Assembly (NCBI GenBank): GCA_047601855.1
Contig: JASGIM010000002.1
Location: 846,389-910,388, forward strand
Origin: Flavobacteriales bacterium
Lineage (GTDB): Bacteria; Bacteroidota; Bacteroidia; Flavobacteriales_F; PHOS-HE28
Direction: 5' to 3'
Length of the DNA stretch: 64,000 nucleotides
The position numbers and the translations under genes are program-made. Position 1 is the stretch's first letter, and each line of letters opens with the position of its first letter. Below are positions 6,210-46,254 of the stretch, piece by piece. The notes under the pieces are model-generated. The model saw only the letters and a program-made list of their open reading frames with translations, searched no databases and had not been told where the DNA came from.

Positions 6210-6220
6210 GACGGATAAGA

Positions 6221-18612: not shown

Positions 18613-18623
18613 AGAAGACCGCC

Positions 18624-26233: not shown

Positions 26234-26284
26234 GGCTTCGTGGTTTCAGTGCTCAAATATCATCGGACCATTTTATCCGTAATA

Positions 26285-26296: not shown

Positions 26297-26346
26297 GTCG
26301 ATCGCATGATCCTTACGGGCTAGGTTCGCGGGCTCCTTCCCGCCCC

Positions 26347-27546
26347 ATGCGCCGCTGGTTCCAACTGTCCCTGCTGTTCTTCGCCGTGGCGGCCACCATC
26401 GGTGCACTGCTGCGGCTGATCTACGTGGTGGAGCTTCCCTGGCTCGTGTTCAAGCCCTGGCTGCATGCGCATTCGCACGTGGCCATGCTGGGCTGGCTCT
26501 TCCCCGGCCTGCTCATCGCCCTGCTGCGGCAGGACGACCGCCCCGCCCCGCGCCGCTTCCGCACCTGGATGACGCTTTCGATGGCCTTCGTGGTCGGCAT
26601 GCTGGTGAGCTTCCCCATCCAGGGGTACGGCCCCATCTCCATCGCCTGCTCACTGGCCCAGATGTTCGTGGGCTATGCGCTGAGCGTGCAGGTGTGGCGA
26701 CACACGTCGCGCTGGCCGGTGGCGGGCAGCCGCCTGCTGGTGCGGCTCGCGTTGCTGTTCCAGGCCATCAGCACCATCGGCGTATGGGCCATGGGGCCGA
26801 TCATGCACAGCGGCCTGGCGGGCAGCGAGTGGTACTACTGGAGCATCCAATGGTTCCTGCACTTCCAGTTCAACGGCTGGTTCTGGTTCGCGGCCATGGC
26901 CATCGGCAGCCGCTGGGCGGAGCGCCACGGCGTGGATGTGCAGCTGGACCGCCTTACGGTGTTCCTCTGGGTGATCGGCACGGTGCTCACGTTCGCGCTG
27001 GCCATCGCGTGGAGCGAACGGACCATCGGCGTGATCGCGGTGAACTCCGTGGGCGTGCTGGTGCAGGCGTGGGCGGCGTGGCGCACCCTGCGCGCCATGC
27101 AGCACGCGCGGCCGCAGGCGCAGGTGCGCACCACGCGCTGGATGCGCATCGTGATCGGCACCATGCTCATCGCCATGGCCGTCAAGGTGGCCGCGCAGGC
27201 CGCCGCGTCCATCCCCGCCGTGGCCGACATCGCCGTCACGCTGCGCAACTATGTCGTCGGCTTCGTACACCTCAACACGATCGGCGCCGCCACCATGGTG
27301 CTGATGGCCTTCGCGCTGGAACGCCGCTGGCTGGATGAAGCCTGCGCGCCGGTCCGCGCCGGACTGGCCTTGCTGATTGCCGGGTTCGCCTTCAGCGAGC
27401 TGCTGCTCTTCGGCCAGGGCACGCTGATCTGGATACGCTGGGGCATGCTGCCCGGCTACCATTGGATGCTGTTCGCGGTGAGCGCGATGCTGCCGATAGG
27501 GGTGCTGCTGCTGGTGGCGGGGTCGCGTTCCGGCGAGAACGTGTGA
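26347..27546 (+). CDS. Polytopic membrane protein, NnrS-like (assignment tentative)
   Basis: ORF 26284..27546. Start moved to MRRWFQLSLLFF because the upstream ATG lies inside the TGAC-N4-GTCA site. About 12 TM helices. WLHAHSHVAMLGW resembles the NnrS HAHxxxFGW motif. Divergent from the nos operon. Confidence 0.55.
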   Translation: MRRWFQLSLLFFAVAATIGALLRLIYVVELPWLVFKPWLHAHSHVAMLGWLFPGLLIALLRQDDRPAPRRFRTWMTLSMAFVVGMLVSFPIQGYGPISIACSLAQMFVGYALSVQVWRHTSRWPVAGSRLLVRLALLFQAISTIGVWAMGPIMHSGLAGSEWYYWSIQWFLHFQFNGWFWFAAMAIGSRWAERHGVDVQLDRLTVFLWVIGTVLTFALAIAWSERTIGVIAVNSVGVLVQAWAAWRTLRAMQHARPQAQVRTTRWMRIVIGTMLIAMAVKVAAQAAASIPAVADIAVTLRNYVVGFVHLNTIGAATMVLMAFALERRWLDEACAPVRAGLALLIAGFAFSELLLFGQGTLIWIRWGMLPGYHWMLFAVSAMLPIGVLLLVAGSRSGENV

Positions 27547-27666
27547 AGGCCGCACGGTCTTATTGGTGAGCACCGGCCATTGGTCGGAGCCTTGCGGGTC
27601 GGATCAGCGCGGGGTATGCTGAGTAAAATTTCGGATCATCAGTCGATCTATTAGCCATAATGCATC

Positions 27667-27707
27667 ATACATGAAGATCGGAAGTAGCGCTTCCGATCTT
27701 CATGTAT
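27667..27707. terminator. 18-bp perfect hairpin in the gap between convergent NnrS-like and DinB genes
   Basis: ATACATGAAGATCGGAAG-TAGCG-CTTCCGATCTTCATGTAT, anchored on ORF 27651. AT-rich flanks but no U-tract. Confidence 0.4.
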
Positions 27708-27925
27708 AGAGGTTGTCGGGCTTGATGGCGCTATAGAGGATGGTGCGGAGTGCGTGCCGGAGATCGGAGCGCTGGGGTGAGCGGCGTGTGCCCATGTGCT
27801 CATGCGACCATGTGCCCATTGACCCTCGCTCGGAGCACTACGGTGGAAGCGCTGCACCGACCTTGCCCGGAGCGGCATTCCATGCGCACATGGCCTTGTT
27901 GGCGTGGTGTTGGAACTTTTCTCTC

Positions 27926-28556: not shown

Positions 28557-31184
28557 CTACCCGCACTTCGTTCCCCCGCAGCTCCGGCACTTTAGGCAGC
28601 CCTCCTCATAGTACAGCCCTTCTGCGTCGCCGCAGTCGGCGCACTTGCGGCCGCTGGCGCTGGTGCCGTCGGGGATGTAGCGTTGCAGGCTGCGCACCAC
28701 GCCGTTCTTCCACGTGTTCAGCGTGGCGTCGAGCAGGTTCAGGTTCGCCACCACGTCCACCACCTGCGGCACGGGCATCCCCTGGCGCAGCATGCCGCTG
28801 ATCAGGATCGCATAGTTCCAGAACTCGGGATCGAACGTGCGGCTCAGGCCCTGCACGGTCACGCGGTAATCATCCTGATCCGCGTACTCCAGGTCGTAGC
28901 GGTTCTTGCCGCGCTTCTCGTCGCGGCGCTTCACCACCCAGCCTTTCGTCACCCACTTGGGCAGCTCGAAACCGCCGTTGGCCTTGCCGGTGAAGATCTC
29001 ATACGGCCTTCCCTCGAACAGGCCCACCACGGCCAGCCACGGTTCGGTGCCGTTGTTGAAACGGATCACGTCGGCCTCGAGGCGTTCGGGGCGGGCGATG
29101 TGGTGGTGTTCGGCCGCAGCGTCCCCACCGCCCTTGCCGTGTTCACCGGTGTTCGATACCAACACCCCACTGCGGCTGCCGTCCCGGTATACGGTGATGC
29201 CTTTCAGCCCATGCCGCCATGCTTCGAGGTAGATGCCGCCCACCTGCTCCACGGTGGCGGTGCCGGGCAGGTTGATGGTGCTGCTGATGGAGTGCGTCAC
29301 GTACTTCTGCACCACGCTCTGCATGCGCACGCGGCGCTGCCAGTCGATGTCGTTCGCGGTGGCGCCGTGGTAGGGGCTCTGCGCGGGGTCCTCCTTGCCG
29401 GTGGCCTTCATCCAATCCAGCAGGCGCGGGTGGTGTACGGTGAACTCCTCCCACTGGTCGCCCAGCTCGTCGGTGAAGCTCACCACGGCCTTGCTGTCGC
29501 CATGCACCACCTTGCGGCGGCGCGTGTAGCCCAGCATGAACACCGGCTCGATGCCGCTGCTGGTGCGGGTGAGCAGGCTCAGCGTGCCGGTGGGTGCCAC
29601 GGTGCTGATGCTCACGTTGCGGCGGCCGTAGCGCATCATGCGGTCGTGCACCTCCGGCAGTTTGTTCCCCAGCATGGACACGAACCCGCTGGTGCGCTCG
29701 ATGGCGGGGTCGAAGCCCTCGAAGGTCCCGCGCTCGATCGCCATGTCGATGCTGCTCTCGAACTCGGCGCGGCACTTGGTGCGCAGGATGGCCTCGGTGG
29801 CCTCCAGCGCGGGCTCCTCGTCGTATTTCAAGTTGAGCGCGGCAAGCGCGTCGGCCATGCCGGTGAACCCCAGCCCCGTGCGGCGGCCCTTGCGGCCGGT
29901 GTCGCGCAACAGCTCCCAGGTCTCGCGTTCCACGCGCTTCACTTCGCCGGGTTCGGGATCGCTGTCCACCTTGGCCAGGATGCGGTCCACGGCTTCGAGC
30001 TCCAGGTCCACGAGGTCGTCCATGAGGCGCTGTGCCTCGTAGGTGACGGCAGCGAAGCGTTCGTGATCGAACCACGCGTTCGGCGTGAAGGCGTCCTGCA
30101 CGAAGCTGTACAGGTTGATGGCGATCAGGCGGCAGCTGTCACCGCCCTGCATGGCGATCTCGCTGCACGGGTTGGTGCTCTCGTTCCTGAAGCTGGGGTA
30201 CACGCTGCTGGTGCTGTACGTGTGCTGGCGGTCCCAGAAGATCAGGCCGGGTTCGGCGGTGTTGTGGGCGCAGCTTACCAGCGTGTTCCACAGTTCGCGC
30301 GCCTTCACTTGTTTCGTTACCAGCGGCTCCTTCGCACCTGCCTTCGCTTGCTTCGGCAAGGCACTGTCAATGGGCCAGCGGTGCGTGTACATCGCGTCAT
30401 CGGCCACGGCTTGCAGGAACTCGTCGCTCACGCGCACGCTCACGTTGGCGCCGGTGACCTTGGTGAGGTCCTGCTTGATGGTGATGAACTTCTCCACGTC
30501 GGGGTGGGCGATGTCCATGGTGAGCATCAGCGCACCGCGGCGGCCTTTCTGGGCCACTTCGCGCGTGGTGTTGCTGAAGCGCTCCATGAAGCTGACGGCG
30601 CCGGTGCTGGTGCGCGCGGCGTTGCTCACGGCGGCGCCTTCGGGGCGCAGGCTGCTCAGGTCGAAGCCCACGCCGCAGCGGCGTTTGAACAACTGCGCCA
30701 GTTGCTGGTCGTTGCGGAAGATGCCGCCGTAGCTGTCCAGCGGGGCGGGGATCACCACGCAGTTGCTCAACGAGGCCAGCCGGTAGGGATCGCCGAGCGA
30801 GGCCATCACGCTGCCCTGCGGCACCACGTCGCGGAACCCATCGAAGAGGGCGAAGATGCGCTCCTCGGTGAGGGGTTCTCGTTCGCGGCCGTAGGTGCTC
30901 AACAGCTTCTGCTTGGCTGCGGAGGCGCGTCCGTACTTCGCCTCGATGCGGGCGAATTCGCGGGCCATGCGCAGGTGCATCGCGGCGGGGGTGCCCTCCA
31001 GCAATTCGCCTTCGGCGTTGCGCAGGGCGTACTTGTTCACCCACGTGGTGGCGGCCAGTTCATCGCCCTTGAAGTAGGTCAGCGATCGCTCCACGGCCTC
31101 CTCCTTGGTGAAGGTGGCGTTCGCGGGTCCATGGGTGTTCTTCTTCACGGTCTGGCGTTGTTCAAGGGTGGCGTTCGCTGGCAT
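28557..31184 (-). CDS. nrdJ: Adenosylcobalamin-dependent (class II) ribonucleotide reductase
   Basis: Start taken at MPANATLEQ. Active-site loop STNPCSEIAMQGGDSCRLIAINL. C-terminal redox/zinc tail CADCGDAEGLYYEEGCLKCRSCGGTKCG. About 875 aa. Confidence 0.88.
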   Translation of the reverse strand: MPANATLEQRQTVKKNTHGPANATFTKEEAVERSLTYFKGDELAATTWVNKYALRNAEGELLEGTPAAMHLRMAREFARIEAKYGRASAAKQKLLSTYGREREPLTEERIFALFDGFRDVVPQGSVMASLGDPYRLASLSNCVVIPAPLDSYGGIFRNDQQLAQLFKRRCGVGFDLSSLRPEGAAVSNAARTSTGAVSFMERFSNTTREVAQKGRRGALMLTMDIAHPDVEKFITIKQDLTKVTGANVSVRVSDEFLQAVADDAMYTHRWPIDSALPKQAKAGAKEPLVTKQVKARELWNTLVSCAHNTAEPGLIFWDRQHTYSTSSVYPSFRNESTNPCSEIAMQGGDSCRLIAINLYSFVQDAFTPNAWFDHERFAAVTYEAQRLMDDLVDLELEAVDRILAKVDSDPEPGEVKRVERETWELLRDTGRKGRRTGLGFTGMADALAALNLKYDEEPALEATEAILRTKCRAEFESSIDMAIERGTFEGFDPAIERTSGFVSMLGNKLPEVHDRMMRYGRRNVSISTVAPTGTLSLLTRTSSGIEPVFMLGYTRRRKVVHGDSKAVVSFTDELGDQWEEFTVHHPRLLDWMKATGKEDPAQSPYHGATANDIDWQRRVRMQSVVQKYVTHSISSTINLPGTATVEQVGGIYLEAWRHGLKGITVYRDGSRSGVLVSNTGEHGKGGGDAAAEHHHIARPERLEADVIRFNNGTEPWLAVVGLFEGRPYEIFTGKANGGFELPKWVTKGWVVKRRDEKRGKNRYDLEYADQDDYRVTVQGLSRTFDPEFWNYAILISGMLRQGMPVPQVVDVVANLNLLDATLNTWKNGVVRSLQRYIPDGTSASGRKCADCGDAEGLYYEEGCLKCRSCGGTKCG

Positions 31185-31237: not shown

Positions 31238-31249
31238 TGACCATCGTCA
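31238..31249. promoter_or_regulatory. TGAC-N4-GTCA palindrome (CTGACCATCGTCAG), 54 nt upstream of the nrdJ start
   Basis: Read directly and anchored on ORF 31105. Confidence 0.55.
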
Positions 31250-32986: not shown

Positions 32987-35401
32987 TCATCCGGATGCCG
33001 GGGTCTTGCCACGTGAGGCCACCCACACCGCTAGGGTAACGAACCCCACCACGCTGATGCTGCTCAGCGGCATCAGGACGGCGGCGATGAGCGGTGTCAT
33101 GTGCCCCGCCACGGCCAGGGAAACGCCGGTGATGTTGTAGCACAGCGAGATGCCAAGGCTGGCCACCACGATGCTGCGCGCGCGCCGGGCCATGCGCAGG
33201 AACTGCGGAAGGCCGGCGATGGCATCGGCGTCCAGGATGGCGTCGCTGGCGGGCGTGAGGGCGGCGCTGGTCTCGGTAACGGTGATGCCCACGTCGGCCT
33301 GGGCCAATGCCCCGGCGTCGTTGAGGCCGTCGCCCACCATCAGCACGCGATGGCCCTGGTCCTGAAGGTGGCGGATGGCCTGCTGCTTGTCCACCGGTGA
33401 ACACTGGGTGCGCACCTCCTCTTCGGCGAAGGCTACCGCGAGCTCCGGGTCCACCTGGGCATCTCCGGTGAGCAGGGCCATGCGCAACCGTTTCCGCAGG
33501 CGCGCCACGGCGTGCACGATGCCGCCGCGCGCGCGCTTGCGGATGGCGAAATGCCCGCGGTACAGGCCATCGATGGTCACATGCACGTGCGCTTCCCCGC
33601 TGCCGCGCGCTTGTTCCTCCGCGCCACAGAACGATGCTGATCCGATGCGCACCGCGTGGCCCTCCACGGTGCCAATGATGCCTTGGCCGGGGTGCTCCCG
33701 TACTTCGGCATCGGGTGGCGCATGTTCCCCTTCCGGTGCCCGATCGGCGCCCTTCAGTTCCCGCGCCAGCACCACGCTCAGCGGGTGGGTGCTGCTGCGC
33801 GCCAGGCCGCGCACCAGCGCGCGTTCCCCGGTGTCCAACGCCCTGCCGTGCCATTGCACCTCGTGCGCCTCGCGCGCGGTGAGCGTGCCGGTCTTGTCGA
33901 ACACCACGGTGTCCACGTGGGCCATGCGTTCCACCACCTCGGTATCGCGCAGGAAGAGGCCGCGCCTGCCCAGCAGGCGTACGGTGTGGCCGTAGGCGAA
34001 AGGCATGCTCAGGGCCAGCGCGCAGGGGCAGGCCACAATGAGCACGGCGGTGACCACGGGCCACACCTGCGCGCTGTCCTTGCCCCACCAGTAGAGCCCG
34101 GCGCCGAGGGAGATCAGCAGCACCGCCACGGTGAAACGCCGGGCCACGTTGTCGATCATCCGCGGCATGGCGGGCCGCTCGTGGGCGGGGTCCTGCTCGG
34201 CCCATAGCTGCTTCAGGCGGCTGTCGGCGAAGGTGCGCAACACCTCCAGCTCGATGGCCGCGCCGCGTTGGCGGCCGCCGGCCTTGATGGTATCGCCCGC
34301 GTTCTTGCGCACCGGCAGCGGTTCCCCGGTGATGAAGCTGTTGTCGATGTGCCCGGTGCCCGCGCGCAGCACCGCGTCCACGGGCACCAGTTCCTGGTCG
34401 CGCACGATGATGCGGTCGCCGGGCCTCAGGTCGGCCACCTTCACCGGTTCTTCATGGGCGCCTTGCTTGCGCAGCACCACCAGCGGCAGGAAATCCTCCA
34501 GCGCCCGGTCGAAGCGCAACGCCCGGTACGTATGGGCCTGGTACCACCGGCCGATCAGCAGGAAGAAGAGCAGCCCCGCGAGCGAATCGAAATAACCCGG
34601 CCCCGAGCCGCTGATCACGTCGTGGAGGCTGCGGGTCCACAGTGCCACGATGCCCAAGGCGATGGGCTGGTCGATGTTCACCAGGCGGCTGCGGATGCCC
34701 GCCCAGGCGCTGCGGAAGAAGTCGGTGCTGAGGAAGAAGACCACCGGGATGGAGAACAGCACGATGAGCCATTGGAACCCCGCCTTCAGGCCGGCCTCGT
34801 TGTTGGCCCCCAGGTATTCGGGGAAGCTCAGCATCATGGTGTTGCCGAACACGAAGCCCGCCACCCCCAGCCGGATGTACAGCATGCGGGGGATCTCGGC
34901 GCCCTTGCTCCGTGCCGTGGTGTTCGTGAGCTGTGGGCCGTAGCCGATGCGGCGCAGCAGCTTCACCAGGCCGGCCATCGGAAGGCGTTCCTCGCGGAAG
35001 GTGACGGTGAGCTCCTTGTTCGCGAAGGATACCCGCGAGCGCATGATCGCCGGGTCCAGCCGGTGCAGGTTCTCCAGCAGCCAGATGCACGAGCTGCAGT
35101 GCATCTGCGGCACGCTGAAGCGCACCCGCGTGATGCCCGCCTCGCTGAACTCCACCAGCCGCGTGCGGACCTCCTCCAGGCCGAAGAGCTCCGTGCGTTG
35201 CTCGTCCACCGAGGCCTGCTGCTTCGTGCCCGGCCGCTCTTCCATGGTGTAGTAGTCGCACAGCCCGCTTTCCTTCAGCAGGCCGTACACCACCTCGCAG
35301 CCCTGGCAGCAGAAGTCGTGGCCGTCCTGCTTGCGGTGCTCTTCCGCGCAGGGATCCCCGCAGTGGAAGCAGGTGACGGCGATCGGGTCCTGGACCTTCA
35401 T
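32987..35401 (-). CDS. ccoI: Heavy-metal (copper) P1B-type ATPase of the CcoI/FixI type
   Basis: 804 aa. N-terminal CFHCGDPC...FCCQGCEVVYGLL metal-binding domain typical of FixI. CPC (ACPCALAL), DKTGTLT and GDGLNDA motifs. Confidence 0.85.
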   Translation of the reverse strand: MKVQDPIAVTCFHCGDPCAEEHRKQDGHDFCCQGCEVVYGLLKESGLCDYYTMEERPGTKQQASVDEQRTELFGLEEVRTRLVEFSEAGITRVRFSVPQMHCSSCIWLLENLHRLDPAIMRSRVSFANKELTVTFREERLPMAGLVKLLRRIGYGPQLTNTTARSKGAEIPRMLYIRLGVAGFVFGNTMMLSFPEYLGANNEAGLKAGFQWLIVLFSIPVVFFLSTDFFRSAWAGIRSRLVNIDQPIALGIVALWTRSLHDVISGSGPGYFDSLAGLLFFLLIGRWYQAHTYRALRFDRALEDFLPLVVLRKQGAHEEPVKVADLRPGDRIIVRDQELVPVDAVLRAGTGHIDNSFITGEPLPVRKNAGDTIKAGGRQRGAAIELEVLRTFADSRLKQLWAEQDPAHERPAMPRMIDNVARRFTVAVLLISLGAGLYWWGKDSAQVWPVVTAVLIVACPCALALSMPFAYGHTVRLLGRRGLFLRDTEVVERMAHVDTVVFDKTGTLTAREAHEVQWHGRALDTGERALVRGLARSSTHPLSVVLARELKGADRAPEGEHAPPDAEVREHPGQGIIGTVEGHAVRIGSASFCGAEEQARGSGEAHVHVTIDGLYRGHFAIRKRARGGIVHAVARLRKRLRMALLTGDAQVDPELAVAFAEEEVRTQCSPVDKQQAIRHLQDQGHRVLMVGDGLNDAGALAQADVGITVTETSAALTPASDAILDADAIAGLPQFLRMARRARSIVVASLGISLCYNITGVSLAVAGHMTPLIAAVLMPLSSISVVGFVTLAVWVASRGKTPASG

Positions 35402-35455
35402 GGGGTGAACGTGGATGGATCGGACCGGCGCATGTCCGATCCTCTTCGGTGTGGA

Positions 35456-36262
35456 CTAGTCGCGTTGTTCCAGTACCAGCAGTGGGTGATGCCCGTCCAG
35501 CGCCAGTTCCTTCGCCATGCTCGCATGGAAGAGCCGGCCCAGGAACCCGGTGTGCCTGTGGATCACGGCGATCATGTCCGCCCGCTCTTTCTGAGTGGAG
35601 CGCAGCAGTGCATCGGCGATGTCCCGGCCGTGGGCTTCGATGAACCGCAGCGGAACGCCCGACAGCCCGGTCCCATAGATGCCATTGCTCCAATGGTCGG
35701 CGCCCTCCTGCATCGATACGGGGACGTGGGCCACCACGACCTCCGCGGCGGTGTGCAAGGCGATGGAGCGGAGCACGGCCAGGTCCTTCGGGGCCACCAC
35801 GTCGTGGTCGTCCGCCAGCAGGACCCGTTGCAGCGGGCGGATGGCGGCGTTCTCCGGCACGGCCAGCACCGGTATGGGGCTGTTCTTGATCATGGCCGTG
35901 GTGTTGGTGCCGAACAACGGGTTCTGGTGCTTGCCGCGCTGGCCCATCACCACCAGATCGCCCCCGTGTTCGAACGCGAAGGCGTCCAAGGCCACGGGCA
36001 ATGGGCCCAGGAGCAGTTCCTGGCTTGCGCCTTGGATGCCCGTGCGTTCCCGGAACGCCGTGAGCGTATCCTCCAAGGCGATCCGGGTGGTTTCGAGCAG
36101 CTCGGGCACGTAGGCCTGGACCATGGGGTCGGCATAGCCGGTCTCGAAATGGGCATGCACGAACACATAGGACACATCGTCCCGGCCGAATACGCGCGAA
36201 GCGTACAGGGCGGCGTGCATGGCACTGTCGCTGAAGTCGGTGAGCAGGAGGATGCGCATCAT
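35456..36262 (-). CDS. Tandem universal stress protein (UspA) domains
   Basis: Start taken at MMRILLLTDFS. Two Usp halves, each ending in a G-x2-G-x9-G(S/T)-like ATP motif region (VVMGQRGKHQNPLFGTNT; VIHRHTGFLGRLFHASM). Confidence 0.7.
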   Translation of the reverse strand: MMRILLLTDFSDSAMHAALYASRVFGRDDVSYVFVHAHFETGYADPMVQAYVPELLETTRIALEDTLTAFRERTGIQGASQELLLGPLPVALDAFAFEHGGDLVVMGQRGKHQNPLFGTNTTAMIKNSPIPVLAVPENAAIRPLQRVLLADDHDVVAPKDLAVLRSIALHTAAEVVVAHVPVSMQEGADHWSNGIYGTGLSGVPLRFIEAHGRDIADALLRSTQKERADMIAVIHRHTGFLGRLFHASMAKELALDGHHPLLVLEQRD

Positions 36263-36343
36263 CGCGGATCGTCTTTTATGGAACGTACCGCGAAGCAGCC
36301 CCATCCCGGGGATCGGCGGCATGAGCGAAGTCGGTCTTCCGCC

Positions 36344-36355
36344 TGACGATCGTCA
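36344..36355. promoter_or_regulatory. TGAC-N4-GTCA palindrome (CTGACGATCGTCAG), 50 nt upstream of the CDO-like/kinase/regulator operon and 82 nt from divergent usp
   Basis: Read directly and anchored on ORF 36219. Confidence 0.55.
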
Positions 36356-36404
36356 GTTATCGCGCTGGGCCCCTCCGATACGTTTGGACCCCAGCGTGCC
36401 CATC

Positions 36405-36917
36405 ATGCCGGACAAGCCCATCACATCCATCCACGAACTCGTGCAGGAGCTGTTGCGGCATCGCGATCCTTCCCTGTATGCGGGTATCCTTGCGCGCTAT
36501 GCCGTGCCTGGCCAGGACCTCGAGCCCTATTTCCGCTGGAACACGCGGCATTACACCCGCACGTGCATCCAACGCAACGATGCCTTTGAACTGTTGCTGA
36601 TCTGCTACGAGCCCGGGCAGATCACCAGCATCCACGACTACGACAGCCAGATGGCCTGGATCCATCCCGTCATCGGGGAGGTGGTGGAGGAGCGGTACGC
36701 CTTGACCCCGGAGGGGGCCTTGAAGCGGGTCGGGGAACTGCACCTGCGCCCCGGCATGGACGACCGGTTCACGGACACCCACTCGATCCACCGCTTCCTG
36801 AACAGGGGGCCGGGGCGGGCCGTCACCTTGAACCTGTATGCGAAGCCCATGCGGAAGTGGCGGGTGTACAACGGGGCTGCGGGAACGTCGTCGATCGCGC
36901 AAGCGGGGCCTGCGTGA
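36405..36917 (+). CDS. Cysteine-dioxygenase-like cupin (tentative)
   Basis: Start taken at MPDKPITSIHEL, 170 aa. Cupin core LICYEPGQITSIHDYDS...WIHPVIGEVVEERY...THSIHRF resembles bacterial CDO type I, but reads HDY where CDO has HDH. Its stop overlaps the kinase start (TGATG). Confidence 0.45.
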   Translation: MPDKPITSIHELVQELLRHRDPSLYAGILARYAVPGQDLEPYFRWNTRHYTRTCIQRNDAFELLLICYEPGQITSIHDYDSQMAWIHPVIGEVVEERYALTPEGALKRVGELHLRPGMDDRFTDTHSIHRFLNRGPGRAVTLNLYAKPMRKWRVYNGAAGTSSIAQAGPA

Positions 36918-38161
36918 TGCCGCTGCCAAGGGATCGCGCTGGTTATCTTGCCCGCATGGGCACAAGCACGGGTGGTGCGTTCGGCGGCGCCGACATCGCA
37001 CGGGTCAGCGAACTCCTGTTCTCCACGGCCGCGGAAGGCCTGGTGGTGGTGGACGGCAAGGGCACCATCCTCATGCACAACCCGCGGCTCAACGCCATGT
37101 TCGGTTACAGCGAAGGGGAGCTGGTGGGCACCTCGATCGAGGAGCTGCTGCCCGACGCGGCGCGCGCGCGGCATGCCCAGCACCGTGCGGCCTATGCCCA
37201 GCGCCCGGTGCAGCGGTCCATGGGCATCGGCATGGATCTCTGGGGCAAACGCAAGGACGGAACGGTGCTGCCCGTGGAGGTGAGCCTGAACCACTTCGAG
37301 GTGGACGGCGTGCGTTACGTGATGGGCCTTGTTACCGACATCACCTTGCGGCGCAAGGTCGAAGAGGATCTGCAGCGCACCAACCAGGAACTGGAGGACC
37401 GCGTGGAGCAGCGCACCGCAGCGCTGCGCGCCGCCGAGCACAGTGTGCGCGAGGCCCTGGAAACGGAAAAGGAACTGCACGCGCTGAAAAGCCGCTTCGT
37501 GTCCATGGCGAGCCACGAGTTCCGCACCCCGCTCAGCACGATCATGAGCAGCGTGGACCTCATCGGGCGCTACACGGAAAGCGCGGCGGACGAACGCGTG
37601 GGCAAGCACGTCGCGCGCATCCGCGGAAAGGTGCGGGAGATGACGGCCATGCTCAACGAGTTCCTTTCGCTGGAGCGGATCGAGCAGGGCCTTGTTGTTT
37701 GCAGCCCGGTGGAACTGGACGTCGTACACCTCTGCATCGGGCTGCTGGAGGAGTTGCGCCCGCTCGCCAAGCCCGGCCAGGCGATCGATTACGATCACCA
37801 GGGCGAGGAGCGCAACGTGACGCTGGACCAGCAGATGTTGAACAGCGTGATCTCCAACCTGGTCACCAACGCCGTGAAATATTCCCCGGAAGGCAGGCGC
37901 ATCGAGCTGCGGACCTCCATCAGCGGCGGCCGGCTCGGCATCGTCGTGAAGGATGAAGGCATCGGGATCCCGGAGGAGGACCAGCAGCACCTGTTCCAAC
38001 GCTTCTTCCGCGGAGGCAACGCCACCACGATCCAGGGCACGGGCCTCGGGCTGAACATCGTAACGCGCTACCTCGACCTGATGAGCGGCACCATCCGCTT
38101 CACCAGCCGTCCGGGCGCGACGGTCTTCACCGTGGACCTGCCCCAACACCTGACCACATGA
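36917..38161 (+). CDS. Soluble PAS sensor histidine kinase with FixL-like (heme-type) PAS domain
   Basis: No TM helix. PAS core LLPDAARARHAQHRAAY...MGIGMDLWGKRKDGTVLPVEVSL. Coiled linker. H-box MASHEFRTPLS. N and G boxes (NLVTNAVKYS, GTGLGLNIV). Confidence 0.8.
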   Translation: MPLPRDRAGYLARMGTSTGGAFGGADIARVSELLFSTAAEGLVVVDGKGTILMHNPRLNAMFGYSEGELVGTSIEELLPDAARARHAQHRAAYAQRPVQRSMGIGMDLWGKRKDGTVLPVEVSLNHFEVDGVRYVMGLVTDITLRRKVEEDLQRTNQELEDRVEQRTAALRAAEHSVREALETEKELHALKSRFVSMASHEFRTPLSTIMSSVDLIGRYTESAADERVGKHVARIRGKVREMTAMLNEFLSLERIEQGLVVCSPVELDVVHLCIGLLEELRPLAKPGQAIDYDHQGEERNVTLDQQMLNSVISNLVTNAVKYSPEGRRIELRTSISGGRLGIVVKDEGIGIPEEDQQHLFQRFFRGGNATTIQGTGLGLNIVTRYLDLMSGTIRFTSRPGATVFTVDLPQHLTT

Positions 38162-39219
38162 GGACGATCCTGCTCATCGAGGACGACGCTGACATGCGTG
38201 AGAACACCGCCGAGATCCTCGAGCTTGCGGACTACCGCGTGCTGAAGGCGGAGAACGGCCGGCGGGGCGTGGAGATCGCCCGCAAGGAAGTGCCGGACCT
38301 GGTGCTTTGCGACATCATGATGCCCGAGCTCGACGGCTACAGCGTGCTGCACCTGCTCAGCCGGAACCCGGCCACCGCCGAGGTCCCCTTCATCTTCCTC
38401 AGCGCGAAGGCCGAGCGCGGCGACGTGCGCAAAGGCATGGAGCTCGGCGCGGACGATTACCTCACCAAGCCCTTCGAGGAGAGCGAACTGCTCAACGCCA
38501 TCGAGGGCCGCCTGAAACGCAGCGAGCTTTTCCGCAAAGGGTTCAACAACGGGTTCGATGGGCTGAACAAGTTCATGGACCAGGCCCGCGGACTGGAGAC
38601 GCTGAAGGACATCGGCCGCGACCGCAAGACGCGGAAGGTGGCCAAGAAGGGGACGCTCTTCCACGAAGGCGATGAGCTGCGCCACGTGCCCTACCTGGTG
38701 AGCGGCAAGGTGCGGACCTACAAGGTCAACAACGACGACAAGGAGTTCGTGACCGGCCTGCACAGCGCAGGCGATTTCATCGGCTACATGGGCCTCCTCG
38801 AGGATGGCCATGCGATGGAAACGGCCGAGGCACTGGAGGATTGCGAGGTGGCCCTTGTGCCGCGCGAGGACCTGCTTGCGCTGCTCTACCGCGATCGCGA
38901 CGTGAGCATCCGCTTCATCAAGATGCTGGCGCGCGACGTGAAGGAGAAGGAGCAGCACCTGTTGCACCTGGCATACGCCAGCGTGCGGCAGCGCGTGGCG
39001 CAATCACTGCTGCGGGTGCATGAGCGCTATGCGAAGGCGCAGTCCGCGGACCTCGGCGTGCGCATCAGCCGCGATGACCTCGCGAGCATCGTGGGCACCG
39101 CCACCGAGTCGCTGATCCGCTGCCTCACGGACCTGAAGGAGGACGGCCTCATCGATACGCAGGGCCGCGAGATCCGCATCGTGGACAAGGCCCGGCTGGA
39201 GCGCCTGGCGAACGGCTGA
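38158..39219 (+). CDS. Hybrid response regulator: REC + cNMP-binding + Crp/Fnr-type HTH
   Basis: 353 aa. Receiver with DLVLCDIMMPELDG and LTKPF. Crp effector domain (GTLFHEGDELRHVPYLVSGKVRTY). C-terminal HTH ISRDDLASIVGTATESLIRCLTDL. ATGA overlap with the kinase stop. Confidence 0.8.
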   Translation: MRTILLIEDDADMRENTAEILELADYRVLKAENGRRGVEIARKEVPDLVLCDIMMPELDGYSVLHLLSRNPATAEVPFIFLSAKAERGDVRKGMELGADDYLTKPFEESELLNAIEGRLKRSELFRKGFNNGFDGLNKFMDQARGLETLKDIGRDRKTRKVAKKGTLFHEGDELRHVPYLVSGKVRTYKVNNDDKEFVTGLHSAGDFIGYMGLLEDGHAMETAEALEDCEVALVPREDLLALLYRDRDVSIRFIKMLARDVKEKEQHLLHLAYASVRQRVAQSLLRVHERYAKAQSADLGVRISRDDLASIVGTATESLIRCLTDLKEDGLIDTQGREIRIVDKARLERLANG

Positions 39220-39273
39220 CTCGATCGCAACGGCTGCCGGCAGGCAGCGGGATGATCCACCTTCACCCCATCC

Positions 39274-40005
39274 ATGCTCCCCTTCTTCCTTCTGCTGCTG
39301 GCCGCTGAGATTATCGGCACCATCGGCGGCTTCGGCTCCTCCATGCTGGTGATGCCGCTCGCCGGGTGGTTCCTGCCTTTCGACCAGGCGTTGGGCCTCA
39401 CCGCCGTGTTCCACGTGTTCAGCAACGCGGCGAAGATGCTGCTGTTCCGCACGGGCGTGTCGCGGCGCCTGTTGCTGTGGCTGGGCATCCCCGCGATCGC
39501 CGGGGTGATCGTCGGGGCGCGGCTCACCGTGCATCTGGATGAACGCGTGCTCTCCGTGGTGCTGGGCCTGTTGCTGGTGGTGCTTGGCGCCCTGCTGCTG
39601 TGGAAGAACGAATGGCACCTGCGCGCGACCAATGCGAACGCGGCTGCCGGTGGCACGCTCAGCGGGCTGATCGCGGGCCTCGCCGGCACGGGCGGCGCCA
39701 TCCGTGGCATCACGCTGGCGGCCTTCGATCTGGAAAAGGTGGCGTTCGTGAGCACCAGCGCGTGGATCGACATGGGCGTGGACCTGAGCCGCAGCATCGT
39801 GTATGCCGCGCAGGGCTTTGTCACGCCCCAGGTATTGGCCTACCTGCCCGCCATGGCCGTGGCCAGTTTCGGCGGCAGCTGGATCGGTCGCAAGCTGCTC
39901 CTGCGGATCCCGCAGCAGATGTTCCGCCGCATCGTGCTGGTGCTGGTGGTCCTCATGGGGATGATCGTCCTGTTCCAGGGGTGGTCCTCCTTTCGGGCAA
40001 CGTGA
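39274..40005 (+). CDS. Sulfite exporter TauE/SafE family membrane protein
   Basis: 243 aa with about seven TM helices and the internal duplication typical of TauE (GTIGGFGSSMLVMPL ... GLAGTGGAIRGITL). Confidence 0.75.
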   Translation: MLPFFLLLLAAEIIGTIGGFGSSMLVMPLAGWFLPFDQALGLTAVFHVFSNAAKMLLFRTGVSRRLLLWLGIPAIAGVIVGARLTVHLDERVLSVVLGLLLVVLGALLLWKNEWHLRATNANAAAGGTLSGLIAGLAGTGGAIRGITLAAFDLEKVAFVSTSAWIDMGVDLSRSIVYAAQGFVTPQVLAYLPAMAVASFGGSWIGRKLLLRIPQQMFRRIVLVLVVLMGMIVLFQGWSSFRAT

Positions 40006-40137
40006 GGGGGCTGTGCCTTAGCATGATGGAAGGGGTTCGATCAGATGATCAGAAAATGAGAGGATCAGATGATGGACGCATGCGGGCGTTGTATATTTCA
40101 CCGTATTGGATCCCATAGCATAACCACTCCTATCCCC

Positions 40138-41487
40138 ATGCAACGGACACTCTCACAACGAACACTCTCCGCCTTCCTCGCGATCATCGCTTCCCTGCTT
40201 CTGCAAGCCCAGCCGCCTAATGTGCCGTGGACGGCGCTGGGTGGTGGCACGGACAAGAAGGTGCAGGCCTTGTTGCGCTTATCCAACGGCGACCTGCTGG
40301 TGGCGGGTCAGTTCACCATCGCGGGCGGTGCGGCCCACAGCCGCGTGGCGCGCTGGGACGGCGCCACCTATACGGCGCTGCCGGGGTTCCCGGAGCAGTT
40401 CGAGATCAGCAGCGCGGCTGAACTGAACGGTATCGTTTACGTGGGGGGCAAACCGACCTTCCAATCACCCTATAAGGACCTCATGAAGTGGGACGGCAGC
40501 GCATGGACGGGAGAGGACGTGTTCCGTGGCAAGAACCCCCTGAGCGGTATCCAAGCCCTTTTCGTGCATGATGGCATGCTTTACGCCAGCGGTGATATCA
40601 CTGGCATCGTGGGCACCGACTACGATGTGCTGCGCCTGAACGGGGCATCTTGGGAACTGGTGGGCGGGCCGATGAACCATTACATCCGGTGCATCGGCTA
40701 CTTCGATGGGCACTTGGTGTGCGCAGGCGAATTCACCAGCAGATACCTCTCCACCGCAAACGAGATCCAGCACGTGACTTATCTCGACGGCAATACCTGG
40801 GTCCAATTGGGCGATGGCCTCGATGGCACGGTATACGACCTGCTGGTAGAGGGCAACACCCTGTATGCCACCGGGGACATGCTGACCCCGACGGATGCCT
40901 ATTTCGGCCTGGCGCGCATCACCCCGGATGCCACCACCTGGGAGCAACTGATGCCGAACATCAGGGATTATGTCCGCACGCCGGTGAGCGGCATGATGTC
41001 AGGGCAGTCCATGGTGGCGCACAATGGTGAGCTCTACATCGGCGGAGAGTTCCTCATCGGTGGTGCGACGGTGGGCCGCGGCGTGGCCGTGTTCCACGGT
41101 GCGCCGGATGAGGTGGAGGCCTACTGCGATTTCGGAGGCCCGGTGCAGGCCCTTGCGCTGATCAACGATCACGAGCTGGTGATCGGCGGCACATCCAGCC
41201 GCTACCAGCACATCGCCAGCACGGACCTGCTCGCCAACGGCATCACCGATCCCGCTGCGCGAGCATCCTTCACCGTATCGCCGAACCCCACCACGGGTCT
41301 TCTCCTGGTGGAGCATGCCACCGCGTCCACGGCCCATGTGCTGGACATGGCGGGGCGCGTGGTGCTGGCGATACCGTTGCACAAGGGGACGAACACCGTG
41401 GATGTGCGCACGCTCACCGACGGCTGCTACCTGCTGCGCATGGCGGACGGCGACGCGGTGCGCATGGCGCGGTTCGTCAAACAGTAG
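40138..41487 (+). CDS. Secreted repeat (beta-propeller-like) protein with T9SS type A C-terminal sorting domain
   Basis: Start taken at MQRTLSQRTLSAFLAIIASLLLQAQ (signal peptide). Recurring G-x-F/V-x-x-AGG-type blades. C-terminus VSPNPTTGLLLVEH...GCYLLRMADGDAVRMARFVKQ matches the Por_Secre_tail pattern. Confidence 0.7.
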   Translation: MQRTLSQRTLSAFLAIIASLLLQAQPPNVPWTALGGGTDKKVQALLRLSNGDLLVAGQFTIAGGAAHSRVARWDGATYTALPGFPEQFEISSAAELNGIVYVGGKPTFQSPYKDLMKWDGSAWTGEDVFRGKNPLSGIQALFVHDGMLYASGDITGIVGTDYDVLRLNGASWELVGGPMNHYIRCIGYFDGHLVCAGEFTSRYLSTANEIQHVTYLDGNTWVQLGDGLDGTVYDLLVEGNTLYATGDMLTPTDAYFGLARITPDATTWEQLMPNIRDYVRTPVSGMMSGQSMVAHNGELYIGGEFLIGGATVGRGVAVFHGAPDEVEAYCDFGGPVQALALINDHELVIGGTSSRYQHIASTDLLANGITDPAARASFTVSPNPTTGLLLVEHATASTAHVLDMAGRVVLAIPLHKGTNTVDVRTLTDGCYLLRMADGDAVRMARFVKQ

Positions 41488-44320: not shown

Positions 44321-45577
44321 CTAGTCTTCGTTCACCACCAACGTATGCAGGCCGCCGGCGTACTTGTAGGTCAGCTGCAACCCCGCACCGTCGGCGATCT
44401 CCTTCACCAGGCTGAGGCCGAGCCCTGTGGATGGGCTGGATGGATCGTTCTTGACGAAACGTCCGAACAATTGCTCCGGTTCCACGGACAGCGCAGGGCC
44501 GGTGTTGGTGATCGTGAACCCCTTCGCCCGCACCACCACCTCGATCGATCCGGAAGGGATGTTGTGCTGCACGGCGTTGCGCAGCAGGTTGCCCACGAGC
44601 ACGTCCGCGAGCAGCGGGTGCAATTGGATCCGGCAGGGCTCTTCGGTGCGGATCGTGGTCCGTAGCTGCTTCTCTTCGATCAGGTCCGCGAGGAGCGTGC
44701 GTTGTTCCTCGAAGAGCGCGGTCCAGTCGATAGGGCCTGGAACGAACCGCTGGTTGCCGATGCGCGCGAGCAGGAGCATGTCCGCCACCGTGCGCCCCAT
44801 CCGTTCGCGGGCCCGCAGGAGGCCGTGGATCAGCACCGCTTCACGCTCGCCCATGGCGGGGGATTGGATCAGCTGGTCCAGCCGGCCCTGCATCACCGCC
44901 AGCGGGGTCTGCAGTTCGTGCGCGGCCTGTTCGGTGAACCGCTTCTGCGCGGTGAAGTCGGCGCGCATCTTGGCCATCAAGCGGTCGAGCGTCCGGTTCA
45001 TCGCGGTGAACTCACGGACGTCCGTGGCGGGCAGCGGCGCAGGCGGCGGCCCATCGATGCGGAAGCGCTCGAGCTCCCCCAACGTATCATGGAAGGGCCG
45101 CCAGAGCCTGCGCGCCAGCCACCGGCCCACCAGCACGTTGCCCAGCACCACCAGCACGAGCAGCGCCGTCATGCTCAGGGCGATGCCCGAGACCAGGTCC
45201 TCCGTTTCCAGCAGCAGGCGCCCCACGGTGATGGTGCATGGCGATCCATCAGGGAAGCGGGCCGCGAACCGGCCGATGCGCCAGGGCATCGCGTCGCCGT
45301 TGTCCTCGGGATCGGGCATCACGGTGTCCTTCAGCAGTTCCGTTGGCCCGGCGGCGCCGGGAGCGACCTGGATGAAGAAGCTGGAGATGCCGGTGGGGAA
45401 GGAGCGCTGCCCGCCGAGCACTTCCCGCGCGACCTGTTCCGCTTGGAACGAGAGCTGCTCGTCCGCTTCCTCGGTGACCACGGCGCGCACCAGCCAGTAG
45501 CCGATGGCCGTGCCGATGAGCACCATGGGCACGGCGAGCGCCAGGTTGTAGAGGAACGAGCGTTGCAGCAGGTTCAT
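44321..45577 (-). CDS. Membrane sensor histidine kinase (HAMP + HisKA + HATPase)
   Basis: Start taken at MNLLQRSFLYNLALAVPMVLIG (ATGA overlap with the regulator stop). Two TM helices. H-box AAHELQTPLA. N box LLRNAVQHN. G box GLGLSLVKEI. Confidence 0.8.
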   Translation of the reverse strand: MNLLQRSFLYNLALAVPMVLIGTAIGYWLVRAVVTEEADEQLSFQAEQVAREVLGGQRSFPTGISSFFIQVAPGAAGPTELLKDTVMPDPEDNGDAMPWRIGRFAARFPDGSPCTITVGRLLLETEDLVSGIALSMTALLVLVVLGNVLVGRWLARRLWRPFHDTLGELERFRIDGPPPAPLPATDVREFTAMNRTLDRLMAKMRADFTAQKRFTEQAAHELQTPLAVMQGRLDQLIQSPAMGEREAVLIHGLLRARERMGRTVADMLLLARIGNQRFVPGPIDWTALFEEQRTLLADLIEEKQLRTTIRTEEPCRIQLHPLLADVLVGNLLRNAVQHNIPSGSIEVVVRAKGFTITNTGPALSVEPEQLFGRFVKNDPSSPSTGLGLSLVKEIADGAGLQLTYKYAGGLHTLVVNED

Positions 45578-46254
45578 GCGCCGGTGCTCAGGCGGTAGCC
45601 CAGGCCGTAAACGGTGCGGATGCGGTCCTGCCATCCTTTCTCCACCAGTTTCTTCCGCAGGTTCTTCATGTGTGAATAGAGGAAGTGGTCGTGGTCCATC
45701 CGTTCCGCGAGGTCGCCCCATACGTGCTCCACGATCGCTCCGCGCGACAGCACGCGGTCCTTGTTCATCACCAGGAACAGCAGCAGGTCGAACTGCATCA
45801 CGGTGAGGTCCACCCGCTGCCCGTTCACCTCCACCAGTTTGTCCTCGGGCACGATGCGCAGTTCGTCCAGCTCGATGGCCCGGTTACCGTCGAAGTGCTT
45901 GCGGCGGATGAGCGCGCGGAGGCGGGCCACCAGTTCGGGCAGGTGGAAGGGCTTGGTGAGGTAATCGTCCGCGCCGAGGCCGAGCCCGCCGATGCGGTCG
46001 TCCAGCCCTCCCTGGGCCGAGATGATGATGATGCCGGTGGACGGGTGCCGGCCGTGGAGCTCGCGCACCACTTCCAGGCCGCTGCCCTTGGGAAGCAGGA
46101 GGTCCACCAGCACCGCATCGTAGGTGTGGGATCGCGCCTTCTCCATGGTCGATGGCAGGTCATTGGCCGATTCCACCAGGAACCCTTCCTCCTGTAAGTA
46201 TGCGCGGATGGAACGCCGCAGCTCTGGTTCATCCTCGATCAGCAGCACTTTCAC
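45574..46254 (-). CDS. OmpR/PhoB-family response regulator
   Basis: 226 aa. Receiver (MKVLLIEDEPELRRSI, VLVDLLLPKGSG, LTKPF) plus winged-helix output (RVLSRGAIVEHVWG...IRTVYGLGYRL). Confidence 0.85.
   Translation of the reverse strand: MKVLLIEDEPELRRSIRAYLQEEGFLVESANDLPSTMEKARSHTYDAVLVDLLLPKGSGLEVVRELHGRHPSTGIIIISAQGGLDDRIGGLGLGADDYLTKPFHLPELVARLRALIRRKHFDGNRAIELDELRIVPEDKLVEVNGQRVDLTVMQFDLLLFLVMNKDRVLSRGAIVEHVWGDLAERMDHDHFLYSHMKNLRKKLVEKGWQDRIRTVYGLGYRLSTGA

Follow-up and report, generated by a model that had tools for sequence, protein, structure and literature searches.

The locus

We analysed a three-gene operon of a Flavobacteriales bacterium encoding a cysteine dioxygenase-like cupin, a sensor histidine kinase with a FixL-type PAS domain, and a response regulator in which a receiver is joined to a Crp/Fnr-like module. 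The operon lies within 64 kb of the source genome (contig JASGIM010000002.1, positions 846,389 to 910,388), called here the window, with a G+C content of 61-68%. All coordinates are window positions, and candidate binding boxes are given without strand. We favour the reading that the kinase and the regulator form a switch responding to hypoxia, acting on FNR-type boxes upstream of low-oxygen respiration genes and of the operon itself. The genes of the operon and the elements of its promoter are as follows.

36322-36333: degenerate partner box TGAGCGAAGTCG, centre 22 bp from that of the strong box
36344-36355: strong FNR-type box TGACGATCGTCA / cTGACGATCGTCAg, between the divergent usp and cupin genes, 49 nt before the cupin ATG
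36379-36386, plus strand: exact match to the Bacteroidota -7 element, TACGTTTG, last G 36.5 nt from the box centre
36405-36917, plus strand: cupin with the cysteine dioxygenase fold, 170 aa, first gene of the operon (Pfam CDO_I)
36917-38161, plus strand: soluble sensor histidine kinase, 414 aa (Pfam PAS/PAS_9, HisKA and HATPase_c)
38158-39219, plus strand: hybrid response regulator, 353 aa (Pfam Response_reg, cNMP_binding and HTH_Crp_2)

All Pfam domains of the three proteins exceed the curated cut-offs in a profile search. The first-pass annotation of this DNA had proposed that the three genes are translationally coupled, and both overlaps are present. In TGATG (36915-36919), the cupin stop codon TGA (36915-36917) and the kinase ATG (36917-36919) overlap, and in ATGA (38158-38161) the kinase stop codon (38159-38161) and the regulator ATG (38158-38160) do. 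The gene calls of an 86%-identical relative likewise contain a 414-residue kinase with 4-nt overlaps with both the cupin and the regulator, and stop and start codons overlap in the relative L082 too. The box about 50 nt upstream of the operon was also seen at first reading; together with its spacing, it is repeated in the relatives L001, L003, L007, L011 and L081. A scan for sigma-70 promoters, which does not cover Bacteroidota promoter types, yielded no match in the region 35300-40300.

The kinase and its PAS domain

The PAS domain occupies approximately residues 30-150 of the kinase, and the H-box SHEFRTPL and the ATPase domain are intact. There is no N-terminal hydrophobic segment, and the only hydropathy peak (residues 259-277) lies within the catalytic core; thus the kinase is soluble, as first annotated. 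A reading of this peak as a membrane segment was dismissed, as it sits between HisKA and HATPase_c.

The PAS core had been aligned at first reading with the haem-binding domain of rhizobial FixL, with the proximal His retained and Met at the position of the oxygen-contacting Arg220. Both observations are borne out. Among solved structures, the domain aligns without gaps over about 120 residues with the Bradyrhizobium FixL haem domains 2cmn, 1dp6 and 8js5 (E from 1.2e-18 to 6e-18; from 1.2e-18 to 4.5e-17 over all matched BjFixL haem-domain entries). These are followed, in this order, by Sinorhizobium FixL (1d06), the kinase entry 10jx, and E. coli DosP (E 4e-8), so that all of the 14 best solved matches except 10jx are haem-PAS entries of FixL or DosP. 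The latter, with its companion 10jy, is described as a multi-sensor signal transduction histidine kinase and matches at E 2.8e-12, between FixL and DosP.

The motif RARH of the kinase stands opposite RSRH of FixL, and therefore the haem-ligating His is present. The motif GIGM stands opposite GIGR, placing Met at the Arg220 position. Residues were counted in 68 orthologous PAS domains from other species, with identity down to about 30%. The proximal His is retained in all 68. The position of BjFixL His214, a haem propionate contact, is Arg in 63 of them. Closest to FixL are the copies from Sphingobacteriales, in which Arg206 and Arg220 are both retained. By homology, the domain is a haem-PAS of the FixL/DosP type with an invariant proximal His.

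The hybrid regulator

The regulator consists of a REC domain, a long linker helix, a cNMP-like beta-barrel and an HTH_Crp_2 domain. The direct fusion of a receiver to a cNMP-binding/Crp-Fnr module, noted at first reading, is confirmed by profiles scoring above their cut-offs (Response_reg 102.8, cNMP_binding 69.2, HTH_Crp_2 60.6 bits). The receiver is complete, with the acidic pair, Asp52, Ser82 (in FLSAK) and Lys104. Conservation was assessed in 120 diverse relatives with identity down to about 35%; D9, D52, K104 and P105 each recur in 90% or more of them. Three distant relatives (P0193, P0243, P0250) have Lys, Gly or Asn at the Asp52 position, and therefore aspartate-less (pseudo-receiver) versions of this architecture exist.

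The recognition helix reads TATESLIRCL and contains the ESLIR string pointed out earlier. It keeps the Crp/Fnr E...R pair: E317 is conserved in at least 90% of the relatives and R321 is invariant. The Ile of this helix stands where FNR has Ser212. The beta-barrel is devoid of the cAMP-binding Arg82-Ser83 of CRP; a hand alignment places A-M-E-T here and Y-x-E-x-A in the family consensus, the Arg82 position being taken from the E. coli CRP sequence. Binding of cyclic AMP by this domain was considered and rejected, as the family has Glu where CRP has Arg82 in this alignment. Cysteines occur only at positions 51, 229 and 322, and there is no N-terminal cysteine cluster of the FNR type, the N-terminus being the receiver.

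The protein reaches the cut-off of none of the NCBIfam equivalogs. It scores 94.7 against the NCBIfam CRP equivalog (cut-off 266), 85.2 against the FixK equivalog NF050806 (cut-off 300, C-terminal 194 residues only), and 83.6 against the Fnr model (cut-off 228). The best-scoring models of the receiver are of the OmpR/PhoB type, not FixJ, and no FixJ structure is found among its 60 best solved matches; a literal fusion of FixJ and FixK was rejected on these grounds. The first-pass annotation had described a collapsed FixL-FixJ-FixK circuit. This description holds as a functional analogy and fails as a literal one, as the receiver is of another type and the kinase is FixL-like in its PAS domain only.

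The AlphaFold model of the regulator has a mean predicted local distance difference test score (pLDDT) of 91 and is confident within domains. In a Foldseek search of the PDB, only the Crp two-thirds of the protein is matched, with at most about 230 aligned columns and a template modelling (TM) score relative to the query of at most 0.56; relative to the targets CRP, GlxR and FNR, the TM score of this part is 0.82-0.90. No PDB chain found by sequence or by fold spans the receiver and the Crp part together.

Candidate boxes and targets in the window

The palindrome TGAC-N4-GTCA occurs seven times in the window against 1.01 expected, and none of 100 shuffled sequences reaches seven. The relaxed form TGAY-N4-RTCA occurs nine times against 1.5 expected. 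All seven exact boxes are intergenic, and six of them sit about 49-53 nt before a plausible start codon. Besides the box of the operon itself, the boxes and candidate target genes are as follows.

6198-6232 (boxes at 6198 and 6221): boxes TGACGGATGTCA and TGACTTTTGTCA in tandem at a spacing of 23 bp, ahead of ccoS (5959-6147, minus strand) and ccoNO-ccoP-ccoG
13382-13393: box 72 nt upstream of a tyrosine phenol-lyase gene (11924-13309, minus strand)
18601-18635 (boxes at 18601 and 18624): box TGACGACCGTCA with its weaker partner TGTTTTTTGTCA at a spacing of 23 bp, ahead of a gene for a fasciclin-domain lipoprotein (17987-18547, minus strand)
26285-26296: box 51 nt upstream of a cytochrome c gene (25775-26233, minus strand), followed by clade II nosZ (23744-25738, minus strand), nosL and nosD
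31238-31249: box upstream of the B12-dependent ribonucleotide reductase gene nrdJ (28557-31184/31226, minus strand)
32987-35401, minus strand: ccoI-type P-type ATPase (Pfam E1-E2_ATPase and ATPase-cat_bd)
35456-36262, minus strand: universal stress protein gene usp (Pfam Usp), divergent from the operon, start taken as MMRILLL

The key assignments exceed the respective model cut-offs: CcoNO (NF011053, 1258 bits), Sec-dependent NosZ (TIGR04246, 927 bits), NrdJ_Z (TIGR02504, 480 bits) and tyrosine phenol-lyase (TIGR02618, 754.5 bits, cut-off 720.7). The probable start of the fasciclin lipoprotein gene is at 18547. The usp and ccoI-type genes are probably co-transcribed. By annotation, the boxes of the window precede typical targets of FixK and FNR, namely cco, nos, nrdJ and usp.

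The promoters of the cytochrome c-nosZ, fasciclin, phenol-lyase and ccoS transcription units each have a weaker -7-like element whose distance from the box centre is exactly 36.5 nt, counted by hand for the last two. Such elements are GATATTTG at the cytochrome c-nosZ promoter and GAACTTCG at the phenol-lyase promoter. The spacing of the tandem boxes is 23 bp at ccoS and the fasciclin gene, and 22 bp at the operon promoter and in most related loci.

The tyrosine phenol-lyase is an unexpected member of a low-oxygen regulon. It is one of two paralogous beta-eliminating lyases encoded about 2 kb apart, the other (8480-9856, minus strand) being recognised by the tryptophanase subfamily model only, and the box lies upstream of the phenol-lyase paralogue only. 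There are two boxes of the TGAT type, TGATGAATATCA at 7974-7985, in the 3' end of a 6-pyruvoyl-tetrahydropterin synthase gene, and TGATGGCGATCA at 30116-30127, inside nrdJ. Both are probably chance occurrences or non-functional.

Distribution and promoter geometry in other genomes

The closest relatives of the regulator, with 75-88% identity, come from metagenome-assembled genomes of Flavobacteriales and are named only 'response regulator'. An exhaustive profile-free search at E <= 1e-30 yielded 2,709 representatives of 50%-identity clusters, and among the best 150 of these almost all are of about 350 residues. A scan of one genome per species identified at least 589 carriers, mostly Bacteroidota with some Bdellovibrionota. 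The carriers include Flavobacteriales, Chitinophagales, Cytophagales (Hymenobacter, Spirosoma, Rudanella, Dyadobacter) and Sphingobacteriales (Mucilaginibacter, Daejeonella), as well as Bacteriovoracaceae and Halobacteriovoraceae.

Gene neighbourhoods were compared in 80 related loci from different species, covering 10 kb on either side of the regulator gene; the analysis of operon upstream regions took 65 of them. A PAS-HisKA kinase of the same type is encoded directly upstream of the regulator, on the same strand, in 74 of the 80 loci. A ccoI-type ATPase gene or an entire cco operon frequently adjoins the regulator.

The box TGAY-N4-RTCA was found upstream of the kinase-regulator operon in 37 of the 65 loci (57%), compared to 202 of 2,476 background windows (8.2%). 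The operons preceded by a box span four orders of Bacteroidota and include Bdellovibrionota copies (L015, L022). In a blind count of palindromes in the 65 upstream regions, TGAT-N4-ATCA was the most frequent (13 loci), with TGAC-N4-GTCA sharing third place (9 loci). Hence TGAC-N4-GTCA, given as the box at first reading, describes the seven sites of the window, but TGAT-N4-ATCA is the commoner form in relatives of lower G+C content.

The distance from the box to the promoter is fixed. The motif TAnnTTTG, known from promoters of Bacteroides and Flavobacterium, is the '-7' element in Bacteroidota. Among 75 pairs of a box and an exact downstream TAnnTTTG, the distance from the box centre is 58.5 nt in 37 and 36.5 nt in 16, with a few pairs one base off. 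As a control, all 64 palindromes of the form XXX(T/C)-N4-(A/G)xxx were considered; only the TGA core produces a peak, and the maximum for the 63 others is two. Many related promoters combine a strong distal box with a weaker proximal box 22 bp away. The box centres would be situated near -41 and -63 if the last G of TAnnTTTG lies near -4. Positions of this kind are the classical class II and class I sites of Crp/Fnr activators.

The outer positions of the box differ from those of the FNR site TTGAT-N4-ATCAA. Of 64 boxes, 8 have T at -1 and 3 have A at +12; A or C is preferred at -1, and T or G at +12. The idea of an FNR core, TGA, with other flanks, put forward in the first-pass annotation, agrees with these counts.

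The genes behind fixed-geometry promoters elsewhere encode FixS/CcoS (six loci), Usp, Hsp20, Pyridox_ox_2, hemerythrin and ScdA-type proteins, YgaP-like proteins and acetyl-CoA hydrolase. A D-2-hydroxyacid (lactate-type) dehydrogenase gene is found behind such a promoter directly after the regulator in Sphingobacteriales (six loci), which suggests that hypoxic fermentation is part of the regulon. An LdhA-like D-isomer specific 2-hydroxyacid dehydrogenase gene follows the regulator in L037, L044, L064, L067, L073, L074 and L080 (at about 11040-11110), with a tandem box whose distal copy is 58.5 nt from TAnnTTTG. In L081, a box lies 51 nt upstream of usp.

The cupin and sulfur-related neighbours

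The cupin scores 47.8 bits against Pfam CDO_I (cut-off 23). Its AlphaFold model has a pLDDT of 85, with Foldseek TM scores of 0.83-0.86 to rat and human cysteine dioxygenase (CDO). The Fe(II) triad of mammalian CDO consists of His86, His88 and His140. The cupin has H77-D78-Y79, with SIHDY opposite SIHDH of the human enzyme; resemblance to CDO with HDY in place of HDH had been reported at first reading, and the second His proves to be mostly lost in the family. It is Tyr or Phe in 24 of 25 aligned homologues, and the third His ligand is Arg in 3 of 25. Thus, by alignment, the three-His iron site of dioxygenases is not conserved. In a separate locus alignment, the cupin of the closer genomic relative L001 keeps His-x-His (HGH). 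The first His, the Tyr-Thr-Arg motif, the Tyr157 equivalent and the cysteines C54 and C67 are invariant in the 25 relatives.

The family forms 238 clusters at 90% identity. Among the 120 matches listed, all hits with a named source come from metagenome-assembled genomes of Flavobacteriales or Bacteroidetes and are annotated 'cysteine dioxygenase family protein'. The cupin gene is present in 11 of the 80 related loci, all from the Flavobacteriales clade nearest to the window. The first-pass annotation counted it as a member of the cassette. This is true of the coupled genes considered here; unlike the kinase-regulator pair, the cupin is clade-specific. It is probably a lineage-specific partner, without dioxygenase function, that is translated together with the kinase. 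By analogy with FixT and FixL, it is possibly a kinase modulator; FixT is described as an accessory control of FixL (PMC7078487).

One more gene may belong to the operon.

39274-40005, plus strand: TauE/SafE-family anion exporter (Pfam, 118.6 bits), possible fourth gene of the operon

It begins 54 nt past the regulator gene, and the first terminator-like site is at 40075. The exporter gene is also downstream of the regulator in L002-L004. In L081, the 86%-identical relative, the box TGACGATCGTCA precedes genes for a YgaP-like membrane protein and a rhodanese (6238-6831), situated between the cco operon and usp. The cupin may be tied to these sulfur-related neighbours, TauE here and YgaP-rhodanese in L081, and the occurrence of all three hints at a sulfur-related side of the regulon.

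A candidate hypoxia switch and its alternatives

The proposed switch is an analogue of FixL-FixJ-FixK that would operate in one phosphotransfer step, compared to two transcriptional tiers in rhizobia. We consider this reading moderately probable. The soluble kinase would hold a b-type haem on the conserved His of its FixL-type PAS domain. When oxygen is low, the ligand would be lost, allowing the kinase to autophosphorylate, and the phosphoryl group would be passed to Asp52 of the hybrid regulator. Phosphorylation of the receiver would release or dimerise the Crp/Fnr-like module, which would then bind (A/C)TGA(C/T)-N4-(A/G)TCA(T/G) boxes. These would lie about 41 bp, and often also about 63 bp in tandem, upstream of the start sites of TAnnTTTG promoters, where the module would activate, rather than repress, in the manner of class II and class I Crp/Fnr proteins. 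The predicted targets are ccoS-ccoNOP-ccoG, usp-ccoI, cytochrome c-nosZLD, nrdJ, and the tyrosine phenol-lyase and fasciclin lipoprotein genes. The operon of the regulator would be a target as well (positive autoregulation). The switch would probably turn on low-oxygen respiration genes, including that of nitrous-oxide reductase, directly.

Several observations weigh against this reading. The Arg220 position is variable in the 68 PAS orthologues (R in 26, M in 24, L in 14), and so is the Arg206 position. The distal Arg of FixL stabilises bound O2 by a hydrogen bond and couples its binding to inhibition of the kinase (PMC4263535). As Arg220 is Met here and variable in the orthologues, and Arg206 is not conserved, the ligand or the switching mechanism may differ from that of FixL. 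The kinase scores 97.8 bits against the NCBIfam FixL model NF041777 (cut-off 850), the match being confined to the haem-PAS segment of the model (positions 129-254), and its core is nearer to WalK/PhoR-type cores than to the FixL core of YF1 (4gcz), 91 against 36 bits. With a whole-protein score so far below the cut-off and a generic HisKA core, the relationship to FixL is homology at the domain level, not orthology. The predicted TM score of the regulator model is 0.64 and the pLDDT of the linker is 50-77, so the arrangement of domains is uncertain. The association of box and regulator was judged at regulator loci, and another Crp/Fnr paralogue may be encoded outside the 64-kb window; the pairing of this regulator with the boxes is thus presumptive.

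One possibility is that the architecture and the regulon are as proposed, and the haem-PAS senses nitric oxide, carbon monoxide or the redox state of the haem iron, with the distal Met perhaps serving as a displaceable sixth ligand like Met95 of DosP. Met has taken the place of the distal Arg in this lineage, and 38 of the 68 orthologues have Met or Leu there; nosZ is in the predicted regulon, and ScdA/RIC-type and hemerythrin proteins, which are associated with nitrosative stress, are encoded behind boxes in other loci. In Ec DOS, Met95 serves as an axial ligand of the haem (PMC4263535). However, the core targets, that is the cbb3 oxidase with its maturation genes, nrdJ, usp, hsp20 and the lactate-type dehydrogenase, are classic low-oxygen genes, and 26 of the 68 orthologues keep the Arg with the same partner regulator and the same boxes. 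By our own alignment, moreover, the Met of the kinase would be at the position of DosP Arg97, not Met95. We therefore regard a signal other than oxygen as unlikely.

It could also be that the boxes belong to another Crp/Fnr regulator encoded elsewhere, for example an iron-sulfur FNR, and that the hybrid regulator has other targets, its adjacency to the boxes being mere co-location. The DNA considered covers 64 kb here and 10 kb on either side in other genomes, and recognition helices of the E...R type are common to many Crp/Fnr proteins. On the other hand, the preference of the box for kinase-regulator operons over the background extends over four orders and Bdellovibrionota. The regulator is the sole Crp-family open reading frame (ORF) of the window, and only 2 of the 80 loci have another Crp-like ORF within 10 kb of the regulator gene. 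The avoidance of the FNR bases T and A at the outer positions of the box fits the helix Ile at the place of FNR Ser212. Control of the boxes by another protein seems rather improbable.

A third alternative gives the cupin the working, or even the primary, sensory role. It would be an enzyme or binder dependent on oxygen or thiols that modulates the kinase, comparable to FixT or to thiol-dioxygenase oxygen sensors, or a sulfur enzyme acting with TauE. Its translational coupling to the kinase, the CDO fold with the Tyr-Thr-Arg motif, the Tyr157 equivalent and two invariant cysteines, the presence of TauE in the same operon, the boxed YgaP-rhodanese genes of L081 and the FixT precedent (PMC7078487) are all consistent with such a role. 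However, with the cupin in only 11 of the 80 loci, the system must work without it elsewhere, and the degenerate three-His site, with Tyr or Phe as the second ligand and sometimes Arg as the third, argues against dioxygenase chemistry. We think a sensory cupin a little less probable still. Finally, it is very improbable that the PAS domain binds no haem and serves another ligand, or dimerisation only, in a kinase answering an unrelated cue: Arg206 and Arg220 are not conserved and the haem is assigned by homology, but the closest solved PAS domains other than 10jx are FixL and DosP haem-PAS domains, and the haem-ligating His is invariant down to about 30% identity, with Arg at the His214 position in 63 of the 68 orthologues.

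A broader reading may be considered, which we offer as tentative. The kinase-regulator pair may be the master low-oxygen regulator of aerobic and facultative Bacteroidota (among them Flavobacteriales, Chitinophagales, Cytophagales and Sphingobacteriales) and of some Bdellovibrionota. It would represent a new output class of response regulators, in which phosphorylation, in place of a small ligand or an iron-sulfur cluster, gates a Crp/Fnr module acting from about -41 and -63 on TAnnTTTG promoters, with direct control of the cbb3 oxidase and clade II nosZ, and a pseudo-dioxygenase derived from CDO would serve as co-sensor in one clade.

Other features of the window

A second two-component pair, consisting of a HisKA/HATPase kinase and an OmpR-type regulator, is encoded 5 kb downstream (44321-46254, minus strand) and is unrelated to the operon. 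About 1.6 kb beside the nosZ promoter (26300-27900) contain long ORFs on both strands (26284-27546, plus; 26650-27573, minus), none of which has a Pfam match.

One uninterrupted frame at 15129-17522 (minus strand) encodes a haem-copper-oxidase-like domain with 12 helices fused to a complete quinolinate synthase NadA. Pfam COX1 covers residues 42-424 (E 7e-25), and NadA covers residues 490-796 above the NCBIfam cut-off; nadB is directly downstream. The fusion of a membrane-oxidase-like domain to an oxygen-sensitive iron-sulfur enzyme is unusual. In L005, a stand-alone NadA-like gene is situated behind a fixed-geometry box promoter.

Novelty and significance

A full-text literature search, whose scope did not include most subscription journals, found no description of a REC-Crp regulator or of a FixL-like kinase in Bacteroidota. 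Receiver-fused members go unmentioned in three CRP/FNR family surveys (PMC3590769, PMC12531629, PMC8510549). The first-pass annotation knew of no characterised REC-Crp regulator wired to a FixL-type kinase. The search likewise found no published characterisation. The kinase-regulator pair is widespread and not a local peculiarity. The sequence family itself is not new, as the REC-Crp architecture is in databases in thousands of copies. The type of sensor, the type of DNA-binding domain and the logic of the regulon are known; here they are united in an uncharacterised class of response regulators with an unusually rigid promoter architecture, in a phylum whose control by oxygen is poorly understood.

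How Bacteroidota sense oxygen and switch their high-affinity oxidases and the reduction of nitrous oxide is largely unknown, and the regulation of nos is poorly known outside Proteobacteria (PMC6264515). The present analysis supplies a candidate regulator found in hundreds of species, of which several are in culture and amenable to genetic work, together with a defined DNA box, a rigid promoter geometry and a predicted regulon. If the prediction is true, the cbb3 oxidase and clade II nosZ, which encodes the nitrous-oxide sink enzyme, are under direct control in a phylum where such control is unknown. Organisms with clade II NosZ are sinks of nitrous oxide, and therefore their oxygen switch matters for mitigation of its emission from wastewater and soil. 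The regulator could also demonstrate how a receiver controls a Crp-fold dimer, an arrangement without a solved structure, and the pair could provide a compact two-protein oxygen-responsive switch for synthetic biology of Bacteroidota.

Comparison with known systems

The closest parallel is FixL-FixJ-FixK of rhizobia and Caulobacter, together with its variant hFixL-FxkR-FixK. Common features are a haem-PAS kinase with the same proximal His, a Crp/Fnr-type output on boxes of the TGA-N6-TCA type, and autoregulation. The targets also coincide, being the cbb3 genes (fixNOQP/ccoNOQP, fixGHIS/ccoGHIS) and nos; control running from FixL to FixK is described for fixNOQP (PMC7888657) and for nos (PMC5582078). 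Unlike these systems, the present one lacks FixJ or FxkR, and likewise FixK, as proteins of their own. The kinase is partnered by REC-cNMP_binding-HTH_Crp_2, and the direct fusion of receiver and Crp module leaves no transcriptional relay step. The OmpR/PhoB-type receiver, the generic HisKA core and Met in place of Arg220 are further differences, as are the outer box bases, A/C and T/G instead of T and A, and the promoters of the TAnnTTTG type.

The regulator resembles FNR, ANR and FnrL in the barrel without cAMP ligands, the E...R helix and the TGA-core palindrome with N4 between TGAY and RTCA. Boxes near -41.5 and near -61.5 and a regulon with the cbb3 oxidase, an oxygen-independent ribonucleotide reductase and usp are also shared. 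In contrast to these proteins, it has no N-terminal cysteine cluster and no iron-sulfur sensing, and a phospho-receiver would take the signal from a separate haem kinase. Ile stands for FNR Ser212, and the outer T and A are disfavoured in the boxes.

The DosS/DosT-DosR (DevSR) system of Mycobacterium likewise leads from a haem kinase to a single regulator and a dormancy-type regulon. The DosR regulon is rich in Usp, Hsp20/alpha-crystallin, class II ribonucleotide reductase and PNPOx-like proteins, and the regulon predicted here, with several Usp proteins, Hsp20, a class II ribonucleotide reductase, PNPOx-like proteins and a P-type ATPase, corresponds closely to it. However, the haem of DosS and DosT sits in GAF domains, and the HTH domain of DosR is of the NarL/LuxR type. 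As the sensor and output domains are not homologous, the likeness looks like convergence.

E. coli DosP (Ec DOS) represents the second-closest group of solved PAS domains and has Met in the distal pocket; in our own alignment, its axial Met95 is two residues before the position that is Met in the kinase. It differs in its output, a cyclic di-GMP phosphodiesterase. The cupin shares its fold, the Tyr-Thr-Arg motif, the first His and the Tyr157 equivalent with type I CDO and the bacterial thiol dioxygenases (MDO), and differs from them in the second ligand, Tyr or Phe, in the third, which is not invariant, and in the location of its gene within a signalling operon of one Flavobacteriales clade. 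The kinase-regulator system works like FixL-FixJ-FixK and FNR and belongs to neither family.

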